Shown here one piece after another: positions 9,731 through 48,492 of a stretch of 52,529 nt of DNA. The stretch covers positions 323,641-376,169 of the forward strand of contig CBDDBE010000001.1 in NCBI GenBank assembly GCA_965225085.1, given 5' to 3'. The notes under the pieces are model-generated. The model ran no database searches and had not been told where the DNA came from. It was given only the letters and a program-made list of their open reading frames with translations. Position 1 is the stretch's first letter. Each line of letters opens with the position of its first letter. The DNA comes from an uncultured Candidatus Saccharibacteria bacterium. GTDB taxonomy: Bacteria > Patescibacteriota > Saccharimonadia > Saccharimonadales > EFPC-124. The position numbers and the translations under genes are program-made.

Positions 9731-9786
9731 CAACGCTCAACAATTTATTGTATAATAATCAGACGGCTACTAGAGATGGAGTGACA

Positions 9787-10200
9787 ATGAGTCTCTCGTC
9801 AACGCTGGCAGCTTTCAGGGCTGCGCAGAATAGCATCAGGGTCGCCACCCTGAGAGGAGAGTGCCGGGCACTCGATGACCACCACGAAGGCTATCTGATC
9901 GTCGGAGTCTACCTTACCCGCTCAGGGCAGCTGGTGATGACCACCCGATATCGGTGCTACAGCATCACCTCTGGCCACTCGGTGCCTACGGCTCCTTCGC
10001 AGGCACAGTTCACAACCGATCAGGCCATTCACGAACTGATGGCCGCACATGGCGTTGAGCTGCCTGATCTGCAGCTGAAGCCAGCCCCGCCCGGCCTGCC
10101 GCGCAAGCTCAAGAAGGCAGTCCGCAAGCCCTTGTCGTCGTGTAGTCCTCACGAGAGACTTCGAGTCGCGCGCCTCGTCTACGCGATAAGGGCAGCCTAA
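9787..10200 (+). CDS. Hypothetical protein (cassette 1)
   Basis: TATAAT at 9751-9756, GGAG at 9778-9781, ATG at 9787, followed by a 13-bp hairpin. Confidence 0.7.
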   Translation: MSLSSTLAAFRAAQNSIRVATLRGECRALDDHHEGYLIVGVYLTRSGQLVMTTRYRCYSITSGHSVPTAPSQAQFTTDQAIHELMAAHGVELPDLQLKPAPPGLPRKLKKAVRKPLSSCSPHERLRVARLVYAIRAA

Positions 10201-10209
10201 AACAAGTAA

Positions 10210-10244
10210 CGGGCACTGGGTCCCACAGCGCGACCCAGTGCCCG
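10210..10244 (+). terminator. GC-rich 13-bp hairpin without adjacent U-tract
   Basis: Perfect stem CGGGCACTGGGTC / GACCCAGTGCCCG. Confidence 0.65.
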
Positions 10245-10312
10245 CCCAGCATACCTTTTGATATAATCTTCACGCTCATCTATACTAATAGCAATATCTT
10301 GAGGAGGGTAAC

Positions 10313-11134
10313 ATGCCAACAACCAAGCCAGCCGATAAAATCCGTGCCAATAGTCCAACCTGGGAATTCCCAGACTTCGAGCTCAACGAACTCTCCAAAA
10401 AGAAAAACAAGTACGCCGTGTGTGTGTTTGTGATCAACGAAGGCAAAAAGGTCCAAGGCCAGCTAACACGGATGGCTAAATATGCCGATATCATCGACAT
10501 TATTGTGGCAGACGGTGGCAGCACCGATGGCTCGCTGGAGCCAGACTTCCTGAAGAAAAACAAGGTTCATGCGCTCCTCACCAAAAAAGGTCCGGGCAAA
10601 CTGAGCGCCCAAATGCGCATGGCATTCGCCTACGTGCTAAACGAAGGTTATGACGGCGTTGTCGTCGTGGATGGCAATGGCAAGGATGACATCAGCGCCA
10701 TCCCATCGTTCGTCGAGGCGCTCGAATCTGGCTACGACCACGTCCAGGGCTCACGCTTTATCCCCGGTGGCAAGGCTATCAATACGCCGCTATCGCGCGA
10801 AATCGGCTTGCACCTCATACACGCGCCACTCATCAGCCTAGCATCGCGCCGCCGGCACACCGACACCACGAACGGATTCCGAGCTTACAGCGCAAAGCTG
10901 CTCTCGGACAAAACCATTGCCGTCTTCCGCGACATCTTCCAAACCTACGAGCTTCACTATCACCTCAGCATCGAAGCTTCACGCGACAAGGACTACAAGC
11001 TTATCGAGATCCCCGTGACTCGCAAGTATCCAGCCAAGGGTAAAACTCCCACCAAAATCAGCCCCGTCAAAGGCAACCTGCACGTCATGGGCGTCCTATT
11101 GAAAGCCGTTACCGGAAAATATCGCAAGAAATAA
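10313..11134 (+). CDS. GT2 glycosyltransferase (DPM synthase-like, soluble)
   Basis: INEG, ADGGSTDGS, VDGNGKD, QGSRF and DTTNGFRAYS motifs. SD GAGGAGG. Confidence 0.9.
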   Translation: MPTTKPADKIRANSPTWEFPDFELNELSKKKNKYAVCVFVINEGKKVQGQLTRMAKYADIIDIIVADGGSTDGSLEPDFLKKNKVHALLTKKGPGKLSAQMRMAFAYVLNEGYDGVVVVDGNGKDDISAIPSFVEALESGYDHVQGSRFIPGGKAINTPLSREIGLHLIHAPLISLASRRRHTDTTNGFRAYSAKLLSDKTIAVFRDIFQTYELHYHLSIEASRDKDYKLIEIPVTRKYPAKGKTPTKISPVKGNLHVMGVLLKAVTGKYRKK

Positions 11135-11210
11135 TTTCGCCGTTTTGCTAATTTAGTCTATAATATGCTCCTGTCAGACACCGCTCACTTCATGGAAGGA
11201 TCTGAGCAAC

Positions 11211-12110
11211 ATGACTGGATCTTTGCTGATCCCTGGAAGCCGTATCGAAGAGCTGCTGGCCAACACGCCCGGACTGAATAGGGTTACTGGCGCAGCGCTG
11301 GTTATGGTATCGGGCGCGAAGTACGTCGATCCCGACGGCGCTGACAGGGCGCGCTTCACCGCAGCGCTGAAGGCAGCCGACTCCTCTACCAGGGCTGGGG
11401 TGCCGCACCTCTTCATGCTGGACAGTGCTTCGCACCGTGATGTGGCAGGCAAGCTTTGGAAGGCCGGCGGTATCGTCGTCTCCGTCCGTCACGACGAGGG
11501 CGGCCTGGCTAGACCCTACCTCACGGCCAGCACCCTGATCGATGCCGTCTACCCTGCCGCACTGATGGGTAAGGTGGAAGCCGAGAAGGACCTGTGTGAG
11601 TACCGCGAGAACATCACAACACTCCTCAAGGCCGCTGAGGACTTCAACGTCATCACTGGCGTCCGAAGCCAACTGACGCTTGACTCCATGCCGGACTATC
11701 TGCGGCTGACCGAAGCGCTCTTGGCGCTGGCCACTCGCGACCTGACCGGCACGTACGATGCGGCCTCTGGCGTCTTGGCGCTCACTGCCAGGGGCAGAAG
11801 GGTGCTACGCCAGACGATAGACGAAGAGTGGCAGTATCTCATCAACGTTCCGTTCGCTGCCCGAGTTTCTCATCGCCTGTCGACAGGCGAGGCTGAGATC
11901 GGCTTCCGCTACCACGAGATGGTGGTGCGCGAGGAGAACGGCAACGAGAGCACCTATGCCAAGCGCCGGCATCAGCTCCAGCTCATGTTGGACTGCGCCA
12001 TCGCAACCGCCGGCGGCATGCACTCGCTCACCCGTGCACAGCTTCAGACCGTCGCTAGCGTGCGCAGTGCGCTCGCAGCGCTGAAGAGACTCTCAGGAAT
12101 CGGGATCTGA
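11211..12110 (+). CDS. Hypothetical protein, possibly a divergent GT-A-fold protein (cassette 2)
   Basis: TATAAT at 11159-11164 and GGAAGGA at 11194-11200. Motif order LDSAS, EAEKD, VITGVR, D..SG loosely resembles GT-A folds. Confidence 0.65.
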   Translation: MTGSLLIPGSRIEELLANTPGLNRVTGAALVMVSGAKYVDPDGADRARFTAALKAADSSTRAGVPHLFMLDSASHRDVAGKLWKAGGIVVSVRHDEGGLARPYLTASTLIDAVYPAALMGKVEAEKDLCEYRENITTLLKAAEDFNVITGVRSQLTLDSMPDYLRLTEALLALATRDLTGTYDAASGVLALTARGRRVLRQTIDEEWQYLINVPFAARVSHRLSTGEAEIGFRYHEMVVREENGNESTYAKRRHQLQLMLDCAIATAGGMHSLTRAQLQTVASVRSALAALKRLSGIGI

Positions 12111-12154
12111 CAGACCAGCCCACCGGAGCACTATGCTCTTAGGTCGGTCAACAC

Positions 12155-12183
12155 GGCCCCGGGCGCACACTGCGCCTGGGGCC
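12155..12183 (+). terminator. GC-rich 13-bp hairpin followed by a C-run
   Basis: GGCCCCGGGCGCA-cac-TGCGCCTGGGGCC (one G-U pair). Confidence 0.65.
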
Positions 12184-12200
12184 ACCCCCAATGAGCTTAT

Positions 12201-14942
12201 CTAATCAGCCAGCGTCTTAAGGTTAGCGGCCGAGGTGTCTAGCATAGTCCAGCTGGCACTTGTTATCTGAATAGTTCCCGTTGCTGGCAGCAGCGAATAG
12301 GTCTTTAGCCGTAAATAAGGATCCTGGTTGTACTCGCTGATCACAACCGGAAATGTCATCTCGCCCACATTCGGATTCAGCGACACGGCAGTTGACGAAT
12401 AGGTATTGTTCGACTCAATCATAAACCGAACCGTCTTGCCAAAGAGAGGGATAGCCGAAATGGACGACGAAAGCTTGTAATGCACATTGACTAACATCAC
12501 GAGCCGCTTTGGGCGTGGAGTATGCAGCTGCGGCCCAGTTCCACTTAGGCCCTGCGACTTTGCTTGCTTGTACTCCCTCAACTCCTGTGCTCTGCGCGCA
12601 TCATCAACCTTCTTCTGAGTGGCATCTGCCTCTGGTCCATTGTTCTCGCGATTAAATTCTTCCCGCACCAGATCACTATTAAAGTTCTGGACAACATACT
12701 GGTCGTACTGGTCCAACGATATCTCTAATTGCGTAGGTACGACTCGTCCAAAATCAAGTAATCGCTGTCTGTCTTGCTGCATAACCTTTTGCCCATAGGC
12801 TTCAACGTCGGGGGCGTTGTCAAACGATGACTTTGGAAGAGTAATCTTCTGGTCTGCAGCGTCTACGGTTAACGGCTGCCACACCTGCGCTTGGGCATGC
12901 TGGTCCGACCACGCTTGGTCCTTGCGTTTCCATACTGCGTATGTTGGCGTCTCGCGCACGACCTCGTAGTTCTGGTCGATCAACGAATACAAACTCCAAT
13001 GCTCATTCTCCATCCATCCTTCCCAGGCAAAATAATCATGGGTGAAAGTCATGACAAATTTTGGCTTCATTGTTTTAAAATCGTTCAAGTAATCCGCCCT
13101 GCGCTGCTGACCGAGGGCGTGAATAATGTAGTCGTAACCGCCCCTACTCGGATTCATAATGCCCATCTCTTGGTTGATAACTCCGGTATATAGCGACCAA
13201 ACCTTGGTATTGTCGTGCTTGAAGTCCTCGGCTACGACCAGCGGCTGCGGAGCCCCGTCATGCGCTGGGTCTAATTGCGCCGCGCTACCTTGCAGGGTCA
13301 CGTACAACTTGTGGTCTCGGGTCGTAACGCTTCGCACAATTTGCCGCCCAGCCTTCGGGAAGTACACGATCTGCCCTGGACGGATAAATGAATCATGGGC
13401 GCCAGATTCTACAACGAGCTGATTGCCACCAGCCTTCACGCCATGTTCGTACCCATCGGCATTAGTGTCGGCAATAGCCACCGTATTATCGGCTTGGATA
13501 ATTGGCATAACTAGCTGGTCGACGCCTCTCCACTCGCCGCCCAGCACATTTGTATCGACACCGGTCACGTAGTTCTTGACGCGAACAAATGCCTCACCGA
13601 CCGGAAATTTATCCTTCAGGAAAACAGCCAACAGTGCTGCATAGACCAAACTAAGCATGATAATGAAGATGGCGAGCCCGCGCCAAAACATTGCAGGCTG
13701 AAGCTTGAAGCGCTTTTTCGACTTACCGAGCTCATAACCATACGTGATGGTTCGTTTCCACCGCTCGCCAAGTATCACGATAGCTATACTACCCATTATG
13801 AGCGACATACGAGCCAGATTTGACGCCTCGAAATTGCTATAGTAGCCAAGCATAGAAACCATTGCGAATGTGCCGGTCAACCACGCATACAAAAACGCCT
13901 GCGACTCGATACGGAACGTGCCCAGCCGAAAAAGTCGATACCCCAACCAGGCCGCGACAACCGCCATAACCCACATGATCAGCAGTAGCCAGTCATTGGC
14001 GAAGGTCTGCCAGACATTGTCAGAATTGATGTATTTGTTGGGCGGTACGCCAAAGTACCAGAACTGATCGGCTGGAATATCAACTAGCGCGTATCTGATC
14101 GGTTCAATCGGATTGCCCCTCGTGATGATCGTGAGCGCCACAAACAAGACAACCCCACCGCTTATGCCTGTGCGGAGCAGGCTAAGCCACCGCGTCGAAA
14201 ATCGCTCGCCTTTCCGGATAGGCAAAACAATGCGTGCAATGCTAAACGCCAAAATTGCAGCCGCGCCAAACTCCGTACCGCACATCAGACTGGCAGCCAG
14301 CAGCGAACCCACGATCAGCTCATACCAAGTTAGTGCCAGCACCCCTTCAGATCGTTGCCGTAGCACGGGTCGACTAAGCCGCTGCTGATTCAATATCACC
14401 GCCAGCAAGAAAACCGGCATCACCGATCGAACGCCCAGGATTGATGTAATCGGCAAAACCAAAAACGGTACCACCAGCATTCCTATGCCCGTTACGGCTG
14501 CGCTCATGCATAGTGCAAAGACGAAGCGCCGTCGCCAGATGTAAAAGACGGTAAATGTAGACAAAACAAAAAGCAGCGGCGACACCAGCCAACGTGCCAT
14601 TTCCTCACCAAACAATCCCTGCCCAAAAATTGCGTAGAACGGTAGATGCAACAGCGGCACCCCGATGCCGTGAAAGAAGTTAAAATCTCGTCCAATCACC
14701 TGCCCGGCCATCAATCGACGCAATGGGTTAAGCAGCTGAAACGCCCCATCCTGAGCCGGCCCATCAAAATACAGTGCGTTGCCAAGCGCCGTAATAATCG
14801 CGCCGAATGCCAGCGCCGCAAAGAGCAGCAATGCGCCAACCAGGTACAACCGTTCGGTCGACTGCCGAGCTATAATCCCCTTTGTGTGTTTTGTTCTGCT
14901 AGATAATACGTCGCGGATGCGGTTGACAGATAATTGAGCCAT
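12201..14942 (-). CDS. Large polytopic membrane protein, probable GT-C-type transferase with long extracytoplasmic C-terminus
   Basis: DGAFQLLNPLRR..GQ..GRDF.FFHG loop, about 12 TM segments, DYIIHALG motif. Confidence 0.65.
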   Translation of the reverse strand: MAQLSVNRIRDVLSSRTKHTKGIIARQSTERLYLVGALLLFAALAFGAIITALGNALYFDGPAQDGAFQLLNPLRRLMAGQVIGRDFNFFHGIGVPLLHLPFYAIFGQGLFGEEMARWLVSPLLFVLSTFTVFYIWRRRFVFALCMSAAVTGIGMLVVPFLVLPITSILGVRSVMPVFLLAVILNQQRLSRPVLRQRSEGVLALTWYELIVGSLLAASLMCGTEFGAAAILAFSIARIVLPIRKGERFSTRWLSLLRTGISGGVVLFVALTIITRGNPIEPIRYALVDIPADQFWYFGVPPNKYINSDNVWQTFANDWLLLIMWVMAVVAAWLGYRLFRLGTFRIESQAFLYAWLTGTFAMVSMLGYYSNFEASNLARMSLIMGSIAIVILGERWKRTITYGYELGKSKKRFKLQPAMFWRGLAIFIIMLSLVYAALLAVFLKDKFPVGEAFVRVKNYVTGVDTNVLGGEWRGVDQLVMPIIQADNTVAIADTNADGYEHGVKAGGNQLVVESGAHDSFIRPGQIVYFPKAGRQIVRSVTTRDHKLYVTLQGSAAQLDPAHDGAPQPLVVAEDFKHDNTKVWSLYTGVINQEMGIMNPSRGGYDYIIHALGQQRRADYLNDFKTMKPKFVMTFTHDYFAWEGWMENEHWSLYSLIDQNYEVVRETPTYAVWKRKDQAWSDQHAQAQVWQPLTVDAADQKITLPKSSFDNAPDVEAYGQKVMQQDRQRLLDFGRVVPTQLEISLDQYDQYVVQNFNSDLVREEFNRENNGPEADATQKKVDDARRAQELREYKQAKSQGLSGTGPQLHTPRPKRLVMLVNVHYKLSSSISAIPLFGKTVRFMIESNNTYSSTAVSLNPNVGEMTFPVVISEYNQDPYLRLKTYSLLPATGTIQITSASWTMLDTSAANLKTLAD

Positions 14943-15085
14943 GCGGAAACGTTCCCCTAAAACTTCCTTTCATTATACAGATTGGTTCCCAGAAACCGAA
15001 TAGGCGGAACAGTTTACGAAAAAACTATTTTATTGTATGTTAAGAAAGCTCGCAAACAAAAACGACTGTCAAGGAGGTGGGCTTC

Positions 15086-15493
15086 ATGCCCCCGATCAGT
15101 CCGACCCAAGCGATTGTCTGTACTGGCTATGGTAACGCCAAGATCGTGCCCGTGAGGGGTAACCCCAACATCGGCAAGATCGTCTACTTCCAGAACTTCG
15201 GCGGCGGCTATGCGGTCGGGTCGAGTCTGGCATTCCATGAGCCTAACTCGGAATGTGACATGCACAACCACCGGGGCGCCGTGGAACAATTCTTCGTCGT
15301 GAGCGGGTCGGGCACTGTCACGATCGACGGAATTGAGCACCCGGTTCAAGCTCATGACCTGGTGCTCGTGCCCGTCGGCGCTTGGCACAAGCTCAAGGCC
15401 GGACCGTTTGAGCCCTTCGTGGTTCTTTGCACCTTCGTCCTCGCGCCCGGCAATGAAGACGACGAGACGCCCTGGGTGGGCACTACGGCCTGA
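15086..15493 (+). CDS. Cupin-domain protein (cassette 3)
   Basis: Cupin motifs HNH....EQFFVVSGSG and DLVLVP.G.WH. SD AAGGAGGT at 15071-15078. Confidence 0.85.
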   Translation: MPPISPTQAIVCTGYGNAKIVPVRGNPNIGKIVYFQNFGGGYAVGSSLAFHEPNSECDMHNHRGAVEQFFVVSGSGTVTIDGIEHPVQAHDLVLVPVGAWHKLKAGPFEPFVVLCTFVLAPGNEDDETPWVGTTA

Positions 15494-15513
15494 GCCCGGC
15501 CCATCGCAACGAC

Positions 15514-15544
15514 GGCCCCGCCCGAGTAATAATCGGGTGGGGCC
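15514..15544 (+). terminator. GC-rich 12-bp hairpin followed by a C-rich tail
   Basis: GGCCCCGCCCGA-gtaataa-TCGGGTGGGGCC. Confidence 0.65.
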
Positions 15545-15614
15545 ACACCCCACATGACCTTATCCCCCCAAAATCCTGTACAATGAATATACAGAATTGT
15601 CTAAGGAGGGTTGA

Positions 15615-16391
15615 ATGACCAGTGCACTCATTGGCTACACCGGTTTCGTAGGCGGCAATCTTGACGCTAAGGCCGACTTTACTGACCGCTACAATACCAA
15701 AAATATCGACCAGATTGATGGCAAGCAATACGACCTCGTGGTCAGCGCGGCAACCTACGCTGAAATGTGGAAGATCAACCAAGATCCAGAGGGCGATCTG
15801 GCCCAGGTCGACTCGCTGATCGCGCATCTGAAGAACGTCAAAGCAAAACAATTCGTCCTCATCTCCACCGTTGGCGTCTACAAAAATTCCGAAGGTGCGA
15901 CCGAGGACACGCCCATCACGCTTGAAGGGCTTCCACCATATGGCGTGAACCGCTACCACCTAGAGCAGTTCGTGCGGGAGCAATTCCCCGGTGCGCTGAT
16001 TGTCCGCTTGCCCGGCCTATTTGGAAAAGGCCTCAAGAAAAACGTCATCTACGACCTTCTGCATGACAATAATGTCGACCGCATTCACTACGCCGGCAGC
16101 TACCAATACTACAACTTGGCAAACCTGTGGAAGGACATCCAGACCGCGCTTAGCAGCAAGCTCACACTCCTCAATCTCGCCACGGCTCCAGTCCGCACCG
16201 ACGAACTGGCTGATTACGCCTTTGGTATCAAGAACTTCAGGACCGAGCCAGAAGGCTTCACGCCGGCCAAATGGGATATGCGCACCAAGCACGACGCGCT
16301 TTTTGGTGGCCACGACGGCTATCTGTATACCAAGCAACAATCACTCGACGACATCAAAAACTTCGTCGCCGAGCAAGGAGCTACCTCATGA
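15615..16391 (+). CDS. NAD(P)-binding epimerase/dehydratase-like protein (extended SDR)
   Basis: ALIGYTGFVGGNL, LISTVGVY, YGVNR and RLPGLFG motifs. SD AAGGAGG. Confidence 0.85.
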   Translation: MTSALIGYTGFVGGNLDAKADFTDRYNTKNIDQIDGKQYDLVVSAATYAEMWKINQDPEGDLAQVDSLIAHLKNVKAKQFVLISTVGVYKNSEGATEDTPITLEGLPPYGVNRYHLEQFVREQFPGALIVRLPGLFGKGLKKNVIYDLLHDNNVDRIHYAGSYQYYNLANLWKDIQTALSSKLTLLNLATAPVRTDELADYAFGIKNFRTEPEGFTPAKWDMRTKHDALFGGHDGYLYTKQQSLDDIKNFVAEQGATS

Positions 16392-17203
16392 ACATTGCCG
16401 TTAGTAATATCGCCTGGACGAGCGAAGAAGAACCGGACGTCGCAAAGACACTCCAGGAGCTCGGCATTCACCATGTCGAAATCGCCCCGACCAGAGTCTG
16501 GGAAAATCCAACAAACGTTACCGACCAGGAGATCCAACAGTACAAAGACTTCTGGGCAAAGCACGACATCGAGATTGTCGCCTTCCAGTCGATGCTTTTT
16601 CCCCGCCCGGACCTTACTATCTTCGACAGCCCCGAGCTTCGTGCGCAGACACAGGACCACCTGGCAAAGTTCATCGCGCTTGCCGGCCGCGTCGGGGCGG
16701 AAGTGCTGGTCTTTGGCTCGCCCAAAAACCGCATCGTGCCTGAGGGCATGCCTGCCGATAAGGCTTGGGACATCGCCAAGGAGTTCTTTGGCAACCTCGG
16801 CAACATTGCTATCAACGCTCAAACCAACTTCTGTATCGAACCAAATGCCAAGGAGTACAACTGCAACTTCGTAAATACCGCCGCCGAAGGTCTCAAGCTG
16901 GTTGAGGAGGTCGACAATCTCGGATTCGAGCTGCACTTGGATGCCGCCATTATGGCCATGGAACATGACGACCCGCAAAGTAGCATCGAAAATGCTCGCG
17001 AACACCTACGCCACTTCCACATCAGCGCCCCGATGCTAATGCCGATTGAGGAAGCGAAGGTCAATCACCAGACCTTTGCCGACGCACTGCGAAGTATCAA
17101 CTACCAACACTTTACCTCTATCGAGATGCGGCCTGGCGATGACGGGACTAACGTGGACCGCGTTCGCGATGCGGTGAAGATTGCTCAGAAATACTATGCA
17201 TAA
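16388..17203 (+). CDS. Sugar-phosphate isomerase/epimerase (xylose-isomerase-like TIM barrel)
   Basis: AVSNIAW, EIAP, VFGSPKNR, IEPN, HLD, HFHIS and SIEM motifs. ATGA overlap with the upstream gene. Confidence 0.88.
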   Translation: MNIAVSNIAWTSEEEPDVAKTLQELGIHHVEIAPTRVWENPTNVTDQEIQQYKDFWAKHDIEIVAFQSMLFPRPDLTIFDSPELRAQTQDHLAKFIALAGRVGAEVLVFGSPKNRIVPEGMPADKAWDIAKEFFGNLGNIAINAQTNFCIEPNAKEYNCNFVNTAAEGLKLVEEVDNLGFELHLDAAIMAMEHDDPQSSIENAREHLRHFHISAPMLMPIEEAKVNHQTFADALRSINYQHFTSIEMRPGDDGTNVDRVRDAVKIAQKYYA

Positions 17204-17759
17204 ACCGGACGACAACCCCTGGAAAACCATCTCAAGTCGTATCGCCTACCAATCTCCATACCTCACCGTTAGGGAGGACAAGGTAATAACACCCGGAAAC
17301 AATGAAGGTATATATAGCCTTATCGAGTCAAAACCTGGCGTACTCGTCGTCGCCCAGACGGATAACGACGAAATATATCTCATTGAGTCATTTCGCTACC
17401 CTTTGCAAGCCTGGTGTTGGGAGATTCCTGGTGGCGGCATTGATCAAGGAGATACACCGCTCGAAGCAGCACAAAAAGAGTTAGAGGAAGAACTCGGCTT
17501 ACGAGCTGACAGTTGGGAACAGCTAGGTGACATGTACCCTTCAAATAACGGACCATTGAATGACCACAATCTGGTTTTTCTAGCGCGTACGTTGCATTCG
17601 GTACAGAAACATCACGAGGCCGGAGAAGCCATCCGGCCGCCAAAGATAGTACCGTGGAAAGATGTACTTAGCATGGTGCGGCAAGGAAAATTAACCGACG
17701 GGCAATCGCTCGGCGCGCTGATGCACTACCTATTATGGAGGCAGGAGCAAGGCCGCTAG
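17196..17759 (+). CDS. NUDIX hydrolase (ADP-sugar pyrophosphatase-like)
   Basis: Nudix box WEIPGGGIDQGDTPLEAAQKELEEELG. Confidence 0.9.
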   Translation: MHKPDDNPWKTISSRIAYQSPYLTVREDKVITPGNNEGIYSLIESKPGVLVVAQTDNDEIYLIESFRYPLQAWCWEIPGGGIDQGDTPLEAAQKELEEELGLRADSWEQLGDMYPSNNGPLNDHNLVFLARTLHSVQKHHEAGEAIRPPKIVPWKDVLSMVRQGKLTDGQSLGALMHYLLWRQEQGR

Positions 17760-17811
17760 CGCTATTTGCCTGATTTCGGTATTCGCTGAAGGCAAAGAGC
17801 GGGCCTGAAGG

Positions 17812-18195
17812 CTACCTCTTACGAGCTAATTGTTCGCGCTCGATCTCGTCCACCATTACCAGCTTCTCGTGAATGCGAGTGACAGTTCGCTTGAGCGCGG
17901 TTACTTCTTCGTTGGTTTCAACTATCAACAGCAGTGCAAATACGAATAGCGTCAGCACGGCAACGTCAAACAAGCTCATCGGCGCAGAGTCGGTTAGGTT
18001 GTGTTGGATCAGCGTATTGTACAGTGGCTGCACAAAGCTCAACACCACACCGATCGATAACCAAAACACCACCTCAACCACACACTTGGTGCGCGAAATA
18101 CGTGACGGTTTGGTCTTATAGCGAGTGATCGCCCGCACGATTCCAACCATTACAACCGGCAGGTTTATCAGCACAAGCAACAGGTATTTACTCAT
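17812..18195 (-). CDS. Small membrane protein with C-terminal coiled coil (DUF2304-like)
   Basis: Three TM segments plus a helical tail. Translationally coupled downstream of a GT2. Confidence 0.65.
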   Translation of the reverse strand: MSKYLLLVLINLPVVMVGIVRAITRYKTKPSRISRTKCVVEVVFWLSIGVVLSFVQPLYNTLIQHNLTDSAPMSLFDVAVLTLFVFALLLIVETNEEVTALKRTVTRIHEKLVMVDEIEREQLARKR

Positions 18196-18914
18196 CCTGC
18201 TATCCTTATACTAATGAGATCGCGAAGGATTTCCATAGACGCCCAGATACTCTGCCCGCGGGCCATGCCTTCCTTGCTATAGCTCACCGCAATCGGCACT
18301 TCGTCGACATGTACACCGCTACGGGCTGCGTGCCACAGCGTCTCGGTGCAGAATCCGTAGCGATCCAAGGTGTAGTTCGATATCTTTGGCAATGTCTGCG
18401 CGCCGTACAGGCGCATGCCGCTCTGTGTGTCCTTTGTTTTGATGCCAAAAAGTATGCGGCTAACGAGACTGCCGCCCCAGTTAATGAAGCGCCGCTGCAA
18501 TGGCATGCTCTGCTTGTTGCCGGTGTGCAGGCGGCTGCCGACAATCATTTCGGAATTGTGCCTTGCGGCATATTCGACCAGCTGCTTGATGTCGTCGCTG
18601 GCGTGTTGACCGTCACCATCAATAGTCACAACGTACGCGAGGTTGGCAACGTACTTTTCGGCATAATGCAGGCCCGTACGAGTTGCGCCACCAGCGCCGG
18701 TATTGACGACGTGGCTCAGCACGATTGCGCCAGCCGCTCGGGCCTCGTCTGCGGTGATGTCTGTCGAACCGTCGTCGATCACCAGCACAGTGGTCTTGAA
18801 CGATGTCGATTTTGTCTTAATAGTACGGGGAATAGACGCGATGACGTCTGCAATATGCGGCCCCTCATTCAGCGCCGGTATTACGACGAGGACCGTCAGT
18901 GGTGTATCAGCCAA
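18192..18914 (-). CDS. GT2 glycosyltransferase (DPM synthase-like)
   Basis: VIPALNE, IDDGSTD, DGDGQH, GSR and DTQSGMR motifs. Confidence 0.92.
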   Translation of the reverse strand: MADTPLTVLVVIPALNEGPHIADVIASIPRTIKTKSTSFKTTVLVIDDGSTDITADEARAAGAIVLSHVVNTGAGGATRTGLHYAEKYVANLAYVVTIDGDGQHASDDIKQLVEYAARHNSEMIVGSRLHTGNKQSMPLQRRFINWGGSLVSRILFGIKTKDTQSGMRLYGAQTLPKISNYTLDRYGFCTETLWHAARSGVHVDEVPIAVSYSKEGMARGQSIWASMEILRDLISIRIAG

Positions 18915-18950
18915 GATTGTACCCTTTTTATCATAAACTTCATCTTACCA

Positions 18951-20930
18951 TCAATACACGACCTTGACCAAATCGCCAAAGGTGTCCGAAATGGTCGAAG
19001 CCGAATCCTTGTCGGTCAAGACATAGAAAGTCAGCCCCCTGGCGCGGGCATCGGTCGCGCACGTCTTCAGCTGCGCGACCATCGCCTGTTGCTCTGGTGG
19101 CGTGAAGTTACCAAAATCGAGATTGCCGTATAGCCGCCCCACGCAGTCCAGCGCCTTTGTGTCGGTCCGGGTACCGTCGTACTGCATCATATTCATCCAA
19201 AATGGAATCTGCATGTGCGCATAGAAGACATGCTTAGTCTGGTCATAGTGCAGAAGCGTTGAATTGAAATGGCGAATGTCGCCCTGGCTGGCAAGCTTTG
19301 CATAGGTTGAGGTATCTTGGTCAAAAAATGCTGGCTTTTCCTGATGCGAACGGTCTCGGAACAAATCCCGGACGTCCTTCAGTGGATTGGCGACGGAGCT
19401 GATCAGCAAAAGGGCAATAACCACCGGGAATATAGGCAGCATCGCAGCGTACTTGAGGTCGCGCGCACCTTGGGCCAAAGACGCCCGAACCAATAGCACA
19501 ACCCCAAGCGCAAGCAGCAAAATCTCGAGCAAAATCGAACTTTTGATAGCGTAGTACCGAATTTCGCCAACGGTGAAGTATTGCACCAGCGCCAGCAATC
19601 CAACAAATGCTAGCAAGGGCACATACAGCACAAATACCAGCTTTCGGAAGTCTTCATCCAGCTTCTTGCTCAGTCCAACACCCAGCACAAACGCCGCACC
19701 AGCCAGCAAAATATATGGATGGAACTGCTTGAGCCCGCCAGTCAGGTTGATGCCCTGGGTCGAGTCCGAACCAGAATATTTCAGCTGGAAGTAAATGGGC
19801 ACAAGCTGCAGCAGGAACACAACCACGAGAGGCCAGCCAGGACGCGCAAATAGGCGCCGGATAGATGGCAACGGATTAAGGCTCGGTGGCACGACAAGCA
19901 ATACCCCGACCAGCACCAGTGGCGGGATGAGCAGCGGCCAACTAGCCGAAGCGCCAAATGCCAGCAGCAGATACGCAAAAAGCGCCCACCGAAGCTTCTC
20001 ATCGCCACCAGCAAACCCCTTCCAATCATCCTGTTTGCCTTTTACATCCACCACGTAGCACATACCGATAAGGATAGTCGCAATGACGTAGTAGTAGTTC
20101 AGAAAACCCTCATTCACAAATGGGATCAGATACAACAGCGCTAACGTTGGGCCAAGAGAAAACGCCAACAGTAACTTCGTCCCAAGCTTTGCAACCTTCT
20201 GCCCTGCCGCCTCGAACAGGCTAGCGACCAGGTAAAACAACGCGTACGCGAGCGCGGCAGCCAGCGCCACATACTGGGCAAAGAATAGCACAGCGTTCAC
20301 CCGCCAGCCCAGGCTAAACTGGCTCGGGAAGACAGTATTCTCGACAAAGGCCGTCGCGATATGGAAGCCCTTGGGGTAGTAATAGCTTGGCGCGTAGGTA
20401 AAATGCTGCGCCACGTTCATCTCGGCAATGCCAGCGTAATGATTAGTGGCGTCTATCGCCTCGATGCTTCCAATCTGGGCGATTTTGTAGACGCTATTTT
20501 GTCCGACAAATATCGGCGCAAACGGTAAAAGGAAGAAAAAAACAACTACCAATCCACAGAGTTCTCGACTGTCGAAAAGCTTTCGATCGCTATACTTCTG
20601 AGCTGGCTGCACCGGAATAAAATACCACAGCCCCACCTGCAGTAGTACAAGCAGCGCCGCCAGCAGCATGAAGTTACTCTGCGGCCAGGCTAGGAACTGA
20701 ACAGTCGCGGCAATCTGCAGTAGTACAACCACAAACGCAAAGCTCACAAACAGCCGGCTAAACCAGCTGCCAAACACCTTGGGCATCGGCAAGTAACGAG
20801 CGTTCAGGAATAGCAGCGCAGGCACGAGCAGAAACTTTATGCCCACGAAATACAGCACCAGTGCGACCAGCACAGCCATGCCTTCCTTGAAGTGCTTCCA
20901 GCCCGTTAGCCTGCCGAGTGCACTAGCCAT
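18951..20930 (-). CDS. Polytopic membrane protein, probable GT-C transferase/polymerase
   Basis: Many TM segments, with D...H, YYPKGFH and RYYAIK motifs. ATG 20930 follows the upstream stop. Confidence 0.65.
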   Translation of the reverse strand: MASALGRLTGWKHFKEGMAVLVALVLYFVGIKFLLVPALLFLNARYLPMPKVFGSWFSRLFVSFAFVVVLLQIAATVQFLAWPQSNFMLLAALLVLLQVGLWYFIPVQPAQKYSDRKLFDSRELCGLVVVFFFLLPFAPIFVGQNSVYKIAQIGSIEAIDATNHYAGIAEMNVAQHFTYAPSYYYPKGFHIATAFVENTVFPSQFSLGWRVNAVLFFAQYVALAAALAYALFYLVASLFEAAGQKVAKLGTKLLLAFSLGPTLALLYLIPFVNEGFLNYYYVIATILIGMCYVVDVKGKQDDWKGFAGGDEKLRWALFAYLLLAFGASASWPLLIPPLVLVGVLLVVPPSLNPLPSIRRLFARPGWPLVVVFLLQLVPIYFQLKYSGSDSTQGINLTGGLKQFHPYILLAGAAFVLGVGLSKKLDEDFRKLVFVLYVPLLAFVGLLALVQYFTVGEIRYYAIKSSILLEILLLALGVVLLVRASLAQGARDLKYAAMLPIFPVVIALLLISSVANPLKDVRDLFRDRSHQEKPAFFDQDTSTYAKLASQGDIRHFNSTLLHYDQTKHVFYAHMQIPFWMNMMQYDGTRTDTKALDCVGRLYGNLDFGNFTPPEQQAMVAQLKTCATDARARGLTFYVLTDKDSASTISDTFGDLVKVVY

Positions 20931-40052: not shown

Positions 40053-40062
40053 ATCCTACCTA

Positions 40063-42927: not shown

Positions 42928-42968
42928 ATGCAACTATCCGCCCATCTGTTACCTTTAGATTGACACTC

Positions 42969-43943
42969 CTAGTGGAGTTGAATAACTACCTCACCCTCAT
43001 CGCCTTCCTCTAGGCGATGCGCCTCCCTGGCTATCGTACTGATGCTCAGGTCGTTGTTACTTGCAAGCCTCATTATATCAGGCGAAACGGCCTGTGTCAG
43101 TGGCTTCGCTGGCTTTGGCTCCTCAAATTTTTGCACAGGGCGCAATTGGTCCTCATACGCATTTGGTTCGGGGATGTGGTAGGGCTGGACGACCTTTTGG
43201 TGCATAGAGTTTGGATATGGATTGAAGCGTGGCGGTGGCGAACCTGGACCAGCTGCGGCAGGTGTCGCGACATCTCGACTGGGTTGGAACTGTCGGCTCA
43301 GGACGTCCTCGGTCGGACCGGCTGCTGGCAAGGCTGGCACGCTAGGCTGAGCGGCTGTCTGGCGCATGCGCTGCATTACCTCTTGGCGGTTCGCCTCGCT
43401 CTTCTTGGCGAGCAACGTGTCGAATGACTTGGCTATGTCGGCATGGTCGTCCATGATGTCGAATGCGCCGGCAGCCTCGGCGGCAACACCAGGTGCTACG
43501 CTGTCGCTGATCTTGCTGACGCCCTTCAGTGACCAACCACGGCTGTCCATCACTCGCGCCAAGTAGTCTAAGCGCTGTTGGGCCGTCTCTTGGTCGAAGT
43601 CCTTGGTCAGCGAGTATTCCTGCGTGGTTGGCGCCGTAATGTCGATATGACTGGCCGCGCCCTCTGGGTCCCACATGCGCCGCTTGGGCTTCAGGTAGAA
43701 CCGCACAATCGCCAGCATGTACGTTTCCATCGGCTGGTCCTTGCGGATCGGCAGCGCCAGCGCGCCAAACAGTATGATAATCGGCAGCGGAATAATGATA
43801 AGCCCAATAAAAATTTGCGCAAGTATAAATGCCACAAACCCCGAGATCGCCACCACAATCAGGTAAATAAACTGGCGAAAGCTAAACGGGCCGATCAGCT
43901 TGTCTTCGGCCTCTACATCCTGCGGAACTTTGTATACTGCCAC
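42969..43943 (-). CDS. PrgI-family (VirB3-like) membrane protein
   Basis: YKVPQDVEAEDKLIGPFSFRQF plus two TM segments and P.RR.W. GTG start at 43943. Confidence 0.85.
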   Translation of the reverse strand: MAVYKVPQDVEAEDKLIGPFSFRQFIYLIVVAISGFVAFILAQIFIGLIIIPLPIIILFGALALPIRKDQPMETYMLAIVRFYLKPKRRMWDPEGAASHIDITAPTTQEYSLTKDFDQETAQQRLDYLARVMDSRGWSLKGVSKISDSVAPGVAAEAAGAFDIMDDHADIAKSFDTLLAKKSEANRQEVMQRMRQTAAQPSVPALPAAGPTEDVLSRQFQPSRDVATPAAAGPGSPPPRFNPYPNSMHQKVVQPYHIPEPNAYEDQLRPVQKFEEPKPAKPLTQAVSPDIMRLASNNDLSISTIAREAHRLEEGDEGEVVIQLH

Positions 43944-43982
43944 GATTCTATTATGCCACACCAGCCCCCGCCGTCACCCCTC

Positions 43983-44041
43983 AAAACGAAAAACAGGCCC
44001 AACCCCCCTGCTGCCGCGTGTGCGGGCTGGGGAGTTGGGCC
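43983..44041 (-). terminator. Intrinsic terminator of cassette 4
   Basis: Minus-strand stem GGCCCAACTCC / GGGGTTGGGCC followed by TGTTTTTCGTTTT. Confidence 0.75.
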
Positions 44042-44048
44042 GGGTCGC

Positions 44049-44547
44049 CTAGTCGGGCGGAAGCGGAAGGTCGTACTTCCGGATCAGCTCGATCATGAGG
44101 AGCTGGAAGGGCTCCAGGTGTGCCCTAAGAGCTTGAGAGCTCGCCACGGGGATTATTGGGGTCTTGGTTGGGGTATGCTTCCGCGCCTGGGGCGTAAAAG
44201 AGGTAACCATTCCCCCTACGTATCCTCCAAGGTCCAGATCGCCCTCCTGAGTAGTCATGGCCGCCAGGGCTATGCGTTTCAATACCCCAGGCTTCAGCAC
44301 TTTCTTGTATGCTGAGCCCATAGCGACTCGTGTAGCCGGTTAGGCTTAGCTGAGACTCGTGGTACCATCCTCGGCCCCGATGGCCTCCGATGATCGGGAT
44401 TTCCTGAAGTCCAGGTCGACCCCTGTGATGCAGTTCTCTTACGACATGTTCAACTGCGGCATCGGCGCGAACGTATGCGGCACGAACTGCTTGCCGTTCG
44501 TCGTCCTCGCTGATATGACTGCGAGCTACATCTTCCCATGATCGCAC
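44049..44547 (-). pseudogene. Cassette 4: hypothetical gene, probably frameshifted (overlapping ORFs 44125-44547 and 44049-44321)
   Basis: Promoter TTGCTT-17-TATCCT, then AAAGGA before GTG 44547. The stop next to the terminator belongs to the other frame. Confidence 0.45.
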
Positions 44548-44693
44548 GTGCCATTCCTTTCTCTCATCTAGAACAGGCAGAGTGCTACAACTTTAGCTCT
44601 GTCGAATACCTTGGGCGACGTCAGGATAGCATAAGCTGCCTTAACAAGCAAGATTCTATCACGCACTGACCCTGGGCGAAATCCAGCGCTACG

Positions 44694-47600: not shown

Positions 47601-47705
47601 CGCGTGTGCGGGCGCGGCGGCAACGAGCCCCAGTATTACGCCAAAGAAGCCGACCAAAAGTCCGCCAGTGATTCCCTTGATCCGATCAAGATACGATATA
47701 GCCAT
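44694..47705 (-). CDS. VirB6/TrbL-like polytopic T4SS protein with large N-terminal extracellular domain
   Basis: Signal peptide, WILCP, W..IRNVAN, R...I..L..LSPIA...LPNTE..F.KW, and YP motifs; long C-terminal tail. Confidence 0.8.
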   Translation of the reverse strand: MAISYLDRIKGITGGLLVGFFGVILGLVAAAPAHAASTVQLDWVDATNVKFGGSAVTGPIAVTGNFVANVVGAPTGTQTFVASSNGPVLMSFGCSASMTLNIFADTSGVIDYSKGNLVFTTSAPSTCSQATLKNNIAGLVQDPQTGAATLSLNAIAIGSVNNRGPAGGTDDPKAQIVNVTAGMGQASDYSNLPPKDMFVLCAAQGSYANNIDSLMSDCIAHKPSALYGVPVTSSNITSLQDGKGPGGGNEQAWTGSFTNVKAGLYVACSDNFKACVLFVKNPGIPAPVYITFGATAGSVIPGQAPGKGATDKVCTTGTGLAGAAAWILCPLVQLMAEASNFFENSIIVPFMTVSPLTTNAQNPTYILWQDIRNVANVGFILFFFFVIFSQATSIGISNYGIKRILPKMGLVVIGVNLSYFIVAIIIDAFNIFGAGISALVVAALTQAQTQQQNFGTTASAASIWTLGTVGLLAIISVGGAVIGWLFSVIGLAFVVIVVVVFILVIRQMAIIVLVILSPIAILMYMLPNTENYFNKWRKTLMQLLIMYPIIVLLFAAGKIFGILLQPGSLTLTGLTGQAEQAARIILQFFAYVIPLAGVPFVFAASGSLMNRAYGLARGRVIQPRTSQVKEGTARLGKEGQMRLATNKFANRIGVGQAAGFGLRRKAVRETRERNLQHTQQEYIAEAMANSTTPLIGMQARAAGVAGQAGRTRAAAGAANVAAKGRAEDIDSEMSLLDAKMRELGTNQKTFAGAIGKYLEDPTNTANQTFTGSNGHTFNFATEGGQFQRALLNSAASQGEVKAIEAARLRYTDERDQLTLDDIIRRNDGKLKEKGGYHLATQFDLAATRMTKPRTNANGDMLDAAGQITRDPAQAARVPVTDPVEAKTIMARQRMAAIADSGANSIAGMKAGLLGDTEAMITRIQGGAPPANAPQAEKDNYTIAANAFNSLSDTARQKMFDRLDEIVNNPNTLARSEGSDSLRNMRETMRTQMGYTHSSTHPTP

Positions 47706-48134
47706 ATACTGTTGCCCCCTGTTTCTGCGCCGCGTGCGGCTAGGATACGTTCATTATAACGAAGCGCAGCGGGTTTGGACAGTAGAGTCGGCAAGGTGAT
47801 GTATATTTTGCAATGATGCCAAAATAAAGTGCAACATTTGCCCCAGAAAGGCTTGCATGACGCCACGCAGACGTGGTACTATCCCCTGCGTGTTCTTGCT
47901 GGGTGGCAAAGCTTTCGTCGTTGGCGCGGTCGTCGGCTTTGCCTCCAGTAACACATTCTTAGCTAGGGTTAGGTGCTTGAGCAGTCTTTAACTGTTTTTC
48001 TAGTCTATTATATATTCGAAATAACGCAAGCTGGCAATGCCAGTTTTTTGTTTGAGTTGGTTCTAGACAATGGACACGATGTACAATTAATGGTATAGTA
48101 TATGTATCGACCCTCGAGTGAAAGGCAGCACTAA

Positions 48135-48431
48135 ATGAACGCGATTGCTGAGCTCTGGGGGAAGATCCCCCGGATCATTCGCAAGCTGATCTTCCTGGCT
48201 TTTGCCATAGGATCGTGCTGGCTCCCCTACCGCTTCGCCCTTGTAGGCGCAGACATGGAGTCGTGGCTGATCAATGGCCTCAACCAGGTGCCTGTCATGC
48301 ACAGCACGCCCGGGATGGCCCGTGCCAACACCTACCATTGGGCCACCGGTTGGTGGCGCGCTGGGCTGGCGCTTACGGTGCTCATCTGGATTGCCTGCAT
48401 CGTCTACCTCATGCAGAAGTCCGATGACTAG
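48135..48431 (+). CDS. Hypothetical two-TM protein (cassette 5)
   Basis: TGGACA-17-TATAGT promoter with extended TG, AAAGG SD, and 3' hairpin. Confidence 0.7.
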   Translation: MNAIAELWGKIPRIIRKLIFLAFAIGSCWLPYRFALVGADMESWLINGLNQVPVMHSTPGMARANTYHWATGWWRAGLALTVLIWIACIVYLMQKSDD

Positions 48432-48450
48432 GCCAGCAAGTGCGCCGGTG

Positions 48451-48492
48451 ACCCTCGATCTGCCCTGCTTTAGCACGGCGCGGATCGAGGGT
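48451..48492 (+). terminator. 13-bp hairpin ending cassette 5
   Basis: ACCCTCGATCTGC / GCGGATCGAGGGT, followed by TCTT. Confidence 0.7.

Follow-up and report, generated by a model that had tools for sequence, protein, structure and literature searches.

A phage moron is a unit of promoter, gene and terminator which deviates in composition and is inserted between phage genes, and the loci for O-antigens and capsules are usually AT-rich blocks of many genes. In Neisseria, minimal mobile elements (MMEs) are thought, according to the accounts available, to move via homologous recombination in conserved flanks after natural transformation. The pattern described here, which was found in a soil Saccharimonadales genome (G000), resembles the MMEs by analogy: a conserved gene pair brackets genes that are different or absent in other genomes, the lineage is naturally transformable, and no mobility gene was seen nearby in searches for recombinases and relaxases. 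It differs from the MMEs in that our comparisons are between species and genera and not between strains, in that many slots harbour a deeply diverged allele of one family instead of unrelated cassettes, and in its GC-rich contents with a persistent codon signature, which the accounts available do not give as an MME trait.

The analysed window has a length of 52,529 nt and contains five short units (genes c1 to c5). As in morons, one ORF equipped with a promoter and a terminator of its own deviates in composition, and at the first slot both presence and absence are found. However, the chromosome in which the units are located is cellular, phage genes are absent from their surroundings, and the promoter and the terminator of c2 belong to the conserved backbone and not to the variable part. 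Based on the cellular neighbours and on the lack of a PHROG match for c1, c2, c4 and c5 (the search gave one weak cupin match only), the phage moron was rejected. Surface-polysaccharide loci are similar in that c1 to c3 lie among glycosyltransferase and sugar genes, c2 is GT-A-like, and the alleles diverge far beyond their flanks. In contrast to such loci, single GC-rich genes vary here inside an otherwise conserved cluster, and the pattern recurs at about 90 unrelated places of the genome.

The four intact coding sequences are c1 (9787 to 10200), c2 (11211 to 12110), c3 (15086 to 15493) and c5 (48135 to 48431), all on the plus strand. A recount (414 + 900 + 408 + 297 = 2019 nt) confirmed the coordinates and numbers given in the preliminary description: there is no AAA trinucleotide, and all 21 lysine codons are AAG and none AAA. 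It was by the absence of AAA that these genes had been chosen there. Their GC content is 0.60-0.62 (0.609, 0.623, 0.605 and 0.599, with GC3 of 0.70, 0.75, 0.76 and 0.81, respectively) compared to 0.54 for the genome, the core genes of which carry 18.3 AAA per kb, in line with the free use of AAA stated for the neighbouring genes. Recoding of the four proteins according to codon frequencies pooled from the other GC-rich genes introduced 13.4 AAA on average, and all four sequences were AAA-free in none of 3000 simulations. The absence of AAA in the four genes exceeds chance given their composition. However, 20 of the 80 other GC-rich genes of at least 297 nt are likewise AAA-free; the five are ordinary members of a genome-wide class and not a special set.

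With the arbitrary cut-offs of GC ≥ 0.59 and GC3 ≥ 0.68, this class comprises 109 of the 1125 genes called by a crude ORF-based caller, which underlies all gene counts and uses the Shine-Dalgarno sequence (SD) when choosing starts. The class genes are spread over all contigs in 96 runs (85 single, nine double and two triple), which agrees with the earlier statement that single genes sit between conserved ones. Among genes of at least 297 nt, 32 are AAA-free, while 2.7 are expected from a composition regression (overdispersion 3.7); the longest AAA-free gene among those called is c2. Among genes preceded by a gap of 50 nt or more, 79% of the 97 class genes and 42% of the 672 remaining ones have an SD core of 4 nt or longer, and a perfect TATAAT occurs in 23% and 10%, respectively. 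Among genes followed by a gap of this size, 50 nt or more, a GC hairpin is present behind 32 of 97 class genes and 64 of 534 others (Fisher p 1.6e-6). Thus, the previously suggested check on the co-occurrence of AAA-poor genes with SD and hairpin was positive, the -10 box being enriched as well. The GC3 distribution of G000 shows a tail and not a second mode. The histogram of G001, a genome of the same genus, is bimodal, and 157 kb of G015 contain 13 GC3-rich genes, all of them single.

The units had been proposed to share a foreign expression grammar. On the plus strand at unit 1, a -10-like TATAAT (9751 to 9756) and the SD GGAG (9778 to 9781) were read from the sequence, and c1 is followed by a hairpin with a 13-bp stem (10210 to 10244; dG -28.5 kcal/mol, z -5.7). 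The promoter region of c2, AATTTAGTnTATAAT...CTGTCAGAC (11150 to 11185, plus strand, with a -10-like TATAAT read at 11159 to 11164), is conserved in G000, G001 and G015 with a mean column identity of 82% in the alignment. Between c2 and a convergent 913-aa ORF on the minus strand lies a hairpin common to both genes (12155 to 12183; dG -33.4 kcal/mol), which is conserved in four genomes; their alignment shows that both arms vary and the hairpin is nonetheless kept. In the leader of unit 3, TATGTT (15036 to 15041) and AGGAGG (15072 to 15077) were read on the plus strand, and a hairpin with a 12-bp stem follows c3 (15514 to 15544, plus; dG -28.6 kcal/mol, z -4.3). Unit 4 ends on the minus strand in a hairpin (43996 to 44041; dG -39.4 kcal/mol, z -4.3) with the subsequent U-tract UGUUUUU, which the hairpins of units 1 to 3 do not have. 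Unit 5 has the promoter-like TGGACA-17-TATAGT with TG (48071 to 48099, plus; 10 of 12 matches in a two-hexamer scan) and an extended hairpin 3' of c5 (48450 to 48493, plus; dG -36.8 kcal/mol, z -4.8).

The existence of a GC hairpin behind every unit was confirmed: all five fold stably (dG -28.5 to -39.4 kcal/mol, z -3.7 to -5.7), and none of 200 shuffled sequences was as stable. The promoter-like regions were recovered in part, since the boxes of units 1 to 3 could be read but the two-hexamer scan calls that of unit 5 only; the TATAAT of unit 1 is not called because a -35 match is missing. The term foreign could not be upheld. The hairpins are heterogeneous without a common consensus, similar ones also close ordinary genes, and the promoter and terminator of c2 are conserved with the backbone; the expression signals are native. 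Integron cassettes, too, comprise one ORF each with an imperfect inverted repeat behind it, but our units form no arrays and bring their own promoters. The integron cassette was rejected, since the hairpins are heterogeneous and occur at ordinary genes, 85 of the 96 runs are single, and the only tyrosine recombinase found, present in one copy in the genome, is located on another contig (C6).

The 137-aa ORF c1 lies between two GT2 genes, which are 92% and 91% identical in G001. At this slot, G001 harbours an unrelated GC-rich ORF of 101 aa (z 0.9 vs. c1) with its own TATAAT and hairpin, and in G015 the slot is empty (53 bp). The contig of a co-occurring relative with approximately 82% nucleotide identity is continuous across slot 1 and has 516 different letters there; the sequencing runs otherwise contained the same strain only. 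Both c1 and the 98-aa ORF c5, in which a crude hydropathy scan predicts two transmembrane hydrophobic segments, were detected in one of 81 genomes each, namely their own. Unit 4 (44049 to 44547, minus strand) consists of two overlapping ORFs in different frames, of 140 aa (44125 to 44547) and 90 aa (44049 to 44321), with an in-frame stop and three AAA, and represents either a gene that is broken or a pair of small ORFs; its 140-aa ORF was found in one of 41 genomes, again its own. Neither c1 nor unit 4 has a Pfam, PHROG, PADLOC or NCBIfam match. Judged from these searches, c1, c4 and c5 are putative small genes without detectable relatives, and because homologues are absent, their coding status relies on ORF length, signals and codon periodicity.

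As at slot 1, the slots of c2 and c3 are flanked by conserved genes. The AlphaFold2 model of the 299-aa protein c2 (pLDDT 93.5, pTM 0.91) was compared to the PDB by Foldseek, which gave moderate matches to GT-A enzymes (E 6.6e-6 to 1e-4, TM 0.46-0.52), with mannosylglycerate synthase (2y4j, E 6.6e-6) and also GpgS (7p8g) among them. Thus, c2 has a predicted Rossmann-like GT-A (nucleotide-sugar transferase) fold, although no Pfam or NCBIfam match was found. The family is small (17 proteins in one search, one of them named, and 80 clusters in another) and conserves D71, S74, E96 and D183. All its named members belong to Candidatus Saccharimonadales, as does the sole genome locus found for the relatives; most matches are nameless, 63 of the 80 clusters being without taxon, and no actinobacterial or phage relative is among the named ones. 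No viral contig with a c2 relative was found. In G000, G001 and G015 the c2 homologues occupy the same slot between the conserved promoter and terminator, while in L105 the homologue is inverted, and the corresponding stretch contains neither the 913-aa gene nor c3. The GC3 of the homologues is 0.90 in G001, 0.95 in G012, 0.99 in G015 and 0.74 in L105, with a GC content of 0.49-0.53 in the flanks. While the neighbouring GT2 is 91% identical in G001, 87% in G015 and 73% in L105, the respective values for c2 are 55%, 32% and 43%, and G012 and G015, which belong to one genus, share only 32% identity in c2. Identity in c2 does not track that of the backbone.

The 135-aa protein c3 is a cupin (Cupin_2, PF07883; 46.5 bits at a cut-off of 27.2, E 3e-12). 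Its syntenic homologues in G001 (43% identity) and G012 (49%) both have a GC3 of 0.93; two related proteins and no phage record with a relative were found. The neighbourhood encodes two GT2s, an RmlD/epimerase-like protein and a sugar-isomerase-like TIM barrel. Both c2 and c3 are probably variable enzymes in a surface-glycan cluster belonging to the cell itself.

Genome-wide, 580 of 749 genes with GC3 of 0.55-0.70 have a match in G001 covering at least 60%, but only 13 of 48 genes with GC3 above 0.75, the median identity of which is approximately 40% (73.6% overall). Genome-wide, 66 syntenic slots were found. A comparison of 58 syntenic slots in which G000 has a class gene showed that 53 are occupied in G001, 42 by a GC-rich gene; a tblastn homologue is present in 15, weak similarity in three and none (z < 6) in 35, while five are empty. 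The composition is, as far as these genomes indicate, persistent within Saccharimonadales and not the fading trace of one recent foreign import. The preliminary description had also considered a maintained tuning of the genes, to be recognised by relatives restricted to the CPR instead of actinobacterial ones. The named c2 relatives are Saccharimonadales, and by this criterion the composition does look maintained, which is an observation and not a mechanism.

The best explanation, towards which we lean with some reserve, is that native insulated units reside in fixed slots and their contents are exchanged between relatives while G/C-ending codons persist. Around 100 short, mostly single genes would then occupy gaps between conserved genes or operons, each as a native insulated transcription unit consisting of -10 box, SD, ORF and GC hairpin terminator, and from relative to relative a slot may harbour an allele that is deeply diverged, a gene that is unrelated, or no gene at all. 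Natural transformation followed by homologous recombination within the conserved flanks could swap or replace the slot contents. The genome encodes ComEC and DprA, and a report on a cultured Saccharibacterium describes comEC-dependent transformation, with an intergenic cassette introduced via homology arms of approximately 1 kb (PMC10633639). The high GC3 might originate from flux of a GC-rich accessory pool, from GC-biased repair at recombining slots, or from codon or mRNA selection.

Alternatively, single genes could have been acquired repeatedly and recently from high-GC donors such as actinobacterial hosts, phages or plasmids, and drift to the composition of the recipient. This we consider unlikely, though worth weighing. 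The homologues reach a GC content of 0.70 and GC3 of 0.95-0.99, values typical of high-GC bacteria, the class genes are patchy or lack relatives, the G000 copies are less extreme than those of the relatives, as partial amelioration predicts, and one class gene has a cutinase domain, a family common in Actinobacteria and fungi. However, donors among high-GC hosts and phages, as proposed earlier, did not emerge: most matches are nameless, and no actinobacterial or phage relative is among the named ones for c2, c3 and a MoxR gene of the class, the best matches of which (50-56%) are, where named, Saccharimonadales, a Verrucomicrobiae MAG, Planctomycetes and Kaiserbacteria. Further, AGG makes up 15% of the class Arg codons, which is untypical of Actinobacteria. 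Last but not least, the c2 homologues share one slot between a conserved native promoter and terminator in three genomes, and therefore repeated import would need exact ORF replacement each time.

The conserved flanks of c2 fit an old resident gene equally well as allele exchange. It is conceivable, and in our opinion again rather improbable, that nothing moves and resident, fast-evolving genes diverge in place, with divergence and GC3 driven by local GC-biased repair or by codon or mRNA selection. In line with this, the flanks are conserved at c2 and c3, which are syntenic, GC3 of matched G000 and G001 genes correlates (r 0.62, n = 691), and the GC3 offset persists at 32-57% protein identity, where synonymous sites are presumably saturated. 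Slots often have about the same length in both genomes where no similarity is detectable (949 vs. 932, 1081 vs. 1076 and 1128 vs. 1152 bp), which fits in-place divergence, and the 35 slots without similarity could have diverged beyond recognition, since the species compared have a protein backbone identity of approximately 73%. On the other hand, slot 1 is empty in G015 and harbours unrelated ORFs in G000 and G001, L105 shows the inversion and the missing genes mentioned above, the c2 identities are out of step with the backbone, and the detectable pairs (34-79%) are followed by three borderline cases and then by 35 without similarity, which is not a smooth decay.

It is tempting to speculate that the class represents a separate translational regime under selection with codons read mainly by non-wobble pairing, but we regard this as doubtful. 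If true, the class could remain translatable under a shortage of wobble-base tRNA modifications or of precursors from the host, as in a free or host-seeking stage; a set of host-interaction genes exchanged between lineages would be recognisable by its codon usage; and, more boldly, class genes could function in a high-GC partner.

Native codon optimisation of highly expressed genes is very improbable. The signals of the class are strong (SD, -10 box and hairpin), its codon shifts run in the direction of the mild preferences of the genome, and an EF-Tu fragment has an AAG:AAA ratio of 20 to 1. However, this fragment has a GC3 of 0.59 and GroEL of 0.62, in the class AGG, Cys and Trp are raised and GGT and CGT reduced, and we rejected high-expression codon bias because 31 genes of the ribosomal protein cluster have the average values of the genome (GC3 0.604, AAG share 0.593).

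Another earlier proposal, that the genes are exported in nucleic-acid form through the neighbouring type IV secretion system (T4SS) and translated in a high-GC host, is hardly credible: the codons lean to G/C-ending, also in relatives, and a VirB6/TrbL-like gene lies between units 4 and 5, nothing else being in its favour, but the class is present on all contigs without enrichment in the window (4 of 52 genes vs. 9.7% genome-wide), units 1 to 3 lie approximately 30 kb from the T4SS within the glycan cluster, the relaxase families PF01076, PF03432 and PF13814 (the last searched without a positive control) gave no match, the promoters consist of a usual -10 box and SD and are conserved together with the backbone, the genome encodes its own tRNA-Lys(CUU), tRNA-Lys(UUU) and tRNA-Arg(CCU) reading AAG, AAA and AGG, and the class includes PBP1, a P-type ATPase and a MacB/FtsX permease, which are self-evidently for the cell's own use. 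Most T4SS loci in Patescibacteria have no relaxase and are thought to have other roles, according to one report (PMC12102498). Nothing found suggests that the five genes are built for being read by a host cell.

The proposed exchange of slot contents between relatives bears on the biology of this group. In a literature search which covered main texts outside most subscription journals, no description of the pattern was found, and one may be in print. The genomes of Saccharibacteria are tiny and highly syntenic, and the way in which these bacteria acquire new functions is still to be explained. In the genome analysed here, approximately one tenth of the called genes is located in fixed, insulated slots, the contents of which turn over between relatives; this naturally transformable lineage seems to have a simple means of replacing genes that is enzyme-free. 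Accessory DNA is AT-rich in most bacteria, and the persistent GC-rich class runs against this pattern. In at least three genomes of two genera the accessory genes stay GC-rich through deep divergence, and the class is thus a concrete case for asking what sets the GC content at synonymous sites.

The four intact coding sequences among the five units of the window (c1, 9787-10200; c2, 11211-12110; c3, 15086-15493; c5, 48135-48431) have a GC content of 0.60-0.62 and, as the preliminary description had stated, contain no AAA: in a total of 2019 nt, lysine is encoded 21 times by AAG and never by AAA. Unit 4 (44049-44547) has an internal stop, although two overlapping ORFs are an alternative reading. 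Recoded according to the codon usage pooled over the remaining 105 GC-rich genes of the genome, the four proteins are expected to carry 13.4 AAA, and all four were AAA-free in none of 3000 recoding simulations based on this usage, a joint probability which overstates the case because the units had been picked for this very trait. The same sequences use GAA for 9 of 31 Glu and CAA for 4 of 19 Gln, yet AAA for none of 21 Lys. Thus, the lack of AAA is remarkable when measured against composition. As a trait of these genes only it did not stand, because 57 genes in the genome are AAA-free. Among genes of at least 297 nt there are 32, compared to 2.7 predicted when codon-position GC is used in a Poisson regression (overdispersion 3.7). 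In the GC band of 0.595-0.63, 14 of 72 genes are AAA-free, and the longest AAA-free gene called in the genome is c2. The gene set comes from our own crude caller, which yielded 1125 genes, c1 among them, at a coding density of 0.85. The assembly, in which the window is located at C1:323641-376169, comprises nine contigs with 1,083,004 bp, a contig GC of 0.49-0.54 and a completeness of 97.9%.

With the arbitrary cut-offs of GC ≥ 0.59 and GC3 ≥ 0.68, the GC-rich, AAA-poor class includes 109 of the 1125 genes, which total 60,195 nt and form 96 runs, 85 of them with a single gene. Its share in the window (4 of 52 genes) is not above the 9.7% found genome-wide. The codon usage of the class is an exaggeration of the two-fold C/G preferences of the genome (TTC 0.83 vs 0.46, ATC 0.81 vs 0.53, AAG 0.81 vs 0.60), and AGG (0.15 vs 0.04), Cys and Trp are raised as well; tRNA-Lys(CUU), tRNA-Lys(UUU) and tRNA-Arg(CCU) are encoded in the genome. 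Codon bias of highly expressed genes was rejected as a cause, since GC3 is average in the genes for ribosomal proteins, EF-Tu and GroEL: in 31 genes of the ribosomal protein cluster on contig C9, which was found via Ribosomal_L2, GC3 is 0.604 and the share of AAG 0.593, and the GC3 values for an EF-Tu fragment and GroEL are 0.59 and 0.62. The EF-Tu gene is apparently split over two contig ends (C3:120669-120929 and C9:22370-22627), and given this the two contigs are probably adjacent.

No enrichment of the class in membrane or secreted proteins was detected (at least one TM segment in 29% of 94 vs 34% of 964 proteins, p 0.36, Fisher), and lipobox-like starts, at 5% vs 0.7%, concern very few genes. 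Pfam domains were detected in nine of the 20 longest class genes and in 11 there were none; the domain-bearing genes correspond to PBP1, cutinase, P-type ATPase, MoxR, VWA, MacB/FtsX, DUF3182, inositol monophosphatase and GFO_IDH. The cutinase domain (PF01083, E 1.7e-16) is in a 673-aa protein encoded at C1:280325-282346, with a 48% identical match in G001, a genome of the same genus; this protein, unexpected for an epibiont, might act on a host envelope. One of just two three-gene runs, C2:135181-138476, contains a MoxR-type AAA ATPase beside a VWA-domain protein; it has no match in G001 and the best MoxR relatives are just 50-56% identical. Two GC-rich single ORFs with hairpins, C9:21369-21662 (+) and C9:20198-20392 (-), lie amid the otherwise highly conserved EF-Tu/S10 ribosomal protein region and are without match in G001; one of them is AAA-free, has a GC3 of 0.82 and is oriented in the opposite direction to its neighbours.

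Strong SD sequences and 3' hairpins indeed co-occur with high GC and scarcity of AAA. Where gaps are comparable, 79% of class and 42% of other genes are preceded by an SD core of 4 nt or more and 23% and 10% by a perfect TATAAT, and a GC hairpin follows 32 of 97 and 64 of 534 genes (p 1.6e-6); our caller uses the SD for choosing starts in both groups equally. At the five units, stable 3' hairpins were confirmed throughout (dG -28.5 to -39.4 kcal/mol, none of 200 shuffles as good); a U-tract is absent in units 1-3 and present in unit 4. Of the promoter-like leaders, TATAAT before c1 and c2 and TATGTT before c3 were retrieved, but a two-hexamer scan calls c5 alone. AGGAGG is located upstream of c3.

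The idea that these signals form a foreign expression grammar was not supported, since those of c2 are conserved in related genomes and similar hairpins also close ordinary genes. The region upstream of c2, from the stop of the preceding glycosyltransferase (GT2) gene via AATTTAGTnTATAAT to CTGTCAGAC, is conserved in this genome, in G001 and in G015, a genome from another genus of the family (column identity 82%). The hairpin downstream of c2 and the sequence behind it, common to c2 and the convergent gene for a 913-aa protein, show conservation across four genomes, among which the arms of the stem both vary with the hairpin retained. Promoter and terminator of c2 are thus native, and the oddity is confined to the ORF between them. 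A shared hairpin motif of the REP or attC type was rejected: no consensus emerged among the 111 hairpins listed, many of which close ordinary genes. Mostly without U-tract and without common sequence, the GC hairpins are normal terminators of this genome. Just downstream of C6:31853-33556, an apparent hairpin of approximately 18 G followed by approximately 15 C could reflect a homopolymer junction or an artefact of the assembly.

All genes were compared with G001 (1,213,336 bp), in which 691 of the 977 genes with a length of 297 nt or more have a match with a coverage of at least 60%. In the GC3 bins 0.55-0.60, 0.60-0.65 and 0.65-0.70, 78%, 76% and 79% of the genes are matched, compared to only 9 of 26 at 0.75-0.80 and 4 of 22 above 0.80. 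Matches in the last two bins have median identities of about 42% and 40%, whereas the overall median is 73.6%. The partners of the poorly conserved GC3-rich genes have a GC3 of approximately 0.82-0.97, and the GC3 of a gene correlates with that of its match (r 0.62, n=691). In G001 itself, GC3 values are distributed bimodally, mainly around 0.60-0.70 with another hump at 0.80-0.90, and 57 genes of at least 297 nt are AAA-free. In 157 kb of G015, 13 of 130 genes exceed the median GC3 by 0.15 or more, every one of them single and five AAA-free. In G021:C1:1-200000, from another family (GC 0.46), 7 of 149 genes exceed the median to this extent, one of them at 0.85-0.90 and three AAA-free. GC-rich outlier genes may be found order-wide.

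Next to the five units lie genes for two GT2 glycosyltransferases, an RmlD/epimerase-like protein, a xylose-isomerase-like TIM barrel, a PrgI-family protein, a TrbL/VirB6-like protein and a VirB4/TraG-like ATPase. Proteins of the backbone around c1-c3 are 81-92% identical in G001, while identity is 55% for c2, 43% for c3 and 66% for the 913-aa protein, and c1 has no match. Relatives of c1 and c5 were found in none of the other genomes (1 of 81 each), and the same applies to the 140-aa ORF of unit 4 (1 of 41). In turn, c3 is present in 7 of 81 genomes, with close relatives only in G001 and in G012 of the genus of G015, and c2 in 5 of 41. The slot of c1, the gap between the two GT2 genes, contains in G001 a GC-rich ORF of 101 aa that is unrelated to c1 (alignment z 0.9) and has a TATAAT and a hairpin of its own, and is empty in G015, where 53 bp separate the GT2 genes. 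The same soil samples harbour a second, more abundant relative (runs X1 and X2, window 5000-19000, depth 44 vs 28-29), approximately 82% identical in backbone genes and with other slot contents; in its contig the slot is joined across with 516 other letters. A close-strain variant was not found in the soil runs, which yielded only the same strain at 100% or this relative. Four runs, all DNA from soil metagenomes of one study and two of them possibly the source, contain window 9000-16500; no RNA data set was among them, which has no bearing on expression.

The divergence of c2 does not track that of the backbone: identities of the neighbouring GT2 and of c2 are 91% and 55% in G001, 87% and 32% in G015, and 73% and 43% at L105, a further locus with a c2 homologue, and c2 is 32% identical between G012 and G015 of one genus and 59% between G001 and G012. 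At L105, the homologue of c2 lies in inverted orientation between GT2 and the RmlD-like gene, and the corresponding stretch lacks the 913-aa gene and c3. The 913-aa ORF (12201-14942, minus strand) is 54-66% identical in relatives, compared to 86-92% for the neighbouring GT2, and matched nothing in Pfam, NCBIfam or PADLOC; by these identities it is fast-evolving as well, yet its composition is ordinary. Genome-wide, class genes sit in 58 syntenic slots, of which 53 are occupied in G001, in 42 cases by a gene that is GC-rich: 15 contain a homologue, three a gene with weak similarity and 35 one without similarity, while five are empty.

Both c2 and c3 fit the surrounding glycan cluster. The c2 family includes 17 proteins by a word-indexed search and 80 clusters with E ≤ 1e-3 by a full HMMER search, with 40 invariant columns; the structure model (pLDDT 93.5, pTM 0.91) matches the GT-A enzymes mannosylglycerate synthase (E 6.6e-6), GpgS, GtrB and RmlA with TM of about 0.5, and c3 is a Cupin_2 protein. 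PADLOC revealed no defence system among the five units, and the ESM Atlas no usable match for c1 or c2.

We favour the explanation that slot contents would be exchanged through the conserved flanks. The genome encodes ComEC and DprA, and a single tyrosine recombinase on a contig other than that of the window; PMC10633639 describes, for a cultured Saccharibacterium, insertion of a promoter-gene cassette with ~1-kb arms into an intergenic site by comEC-dependent natural transformation. Hyper-divergence of the slot genes in place is a serious rival.

Alternatively, outside donors may have supplied the class genes. The homologues of c2 are GC-rich in all relatives (GC/GC3 0.666/0.896 in G001, 0.694/0.946 in G012, 0.697/0.988 in G015, 0.596/0.74 at L105) within flanks of GC 0.49-0.53, with 0, 0, 0 and 6 AAA, respectively, and those of c3 have 0.69/0.93 and 0.68/0.93. 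At 32-59% protein identity we infer that synonymous sites are saturated, so that the GC3 offset would be maintained inside these genomes or renewed from outside. Repeated import of c2 from outside seems unlikely, because the slot is the same and the flanks are native. Most relatives of c2, c3 and the class MoxR gene carry no taxon name, which leaves room for outside donors, but the named ones include none of the actinobacterial or phage donors initially proposed: the label Candidatus Saccharimonadales is on a c2 homologue and on the single locus matched in the genome collection, and the MoxR gene matches Saccharimonadales, a Verrucomicrobiae MAG, Planctomycetes, Spartobacteria and Kaiserbacteria. 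The donor scans of genome and metagenome contigs, which used few peptide patterns and are weak evidence of absence, returned one locus each. A phage origin was likewise without support, as PHROGs gave one weak cupin match only for the units; an IMG/VR scan with the c2 alignment gave 45 pattern matches and zero relatives, and tblastn with c3 against 50,697 phage records no match. Translation by host machinery as T4SS cargo found no backing, since nothing ties the class to the T4SS and the window is not enriched in class genes; a relaxase was not found with three Pfam families, one lacking a positive control, and PMC12102498 states that most Patescibacteria T4SS loci have none.

In the literature searched we found no description of such a class, although supplementary tables (PMC12455944, PMC12102498) might list similar genes. 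In summary, the observation on the five units is real but not special to them, since it extends to the whole class. What remains is a genome-wide class of GC-rich, hypervariable slot genes, for which we prefer exchange via conserved flanks.
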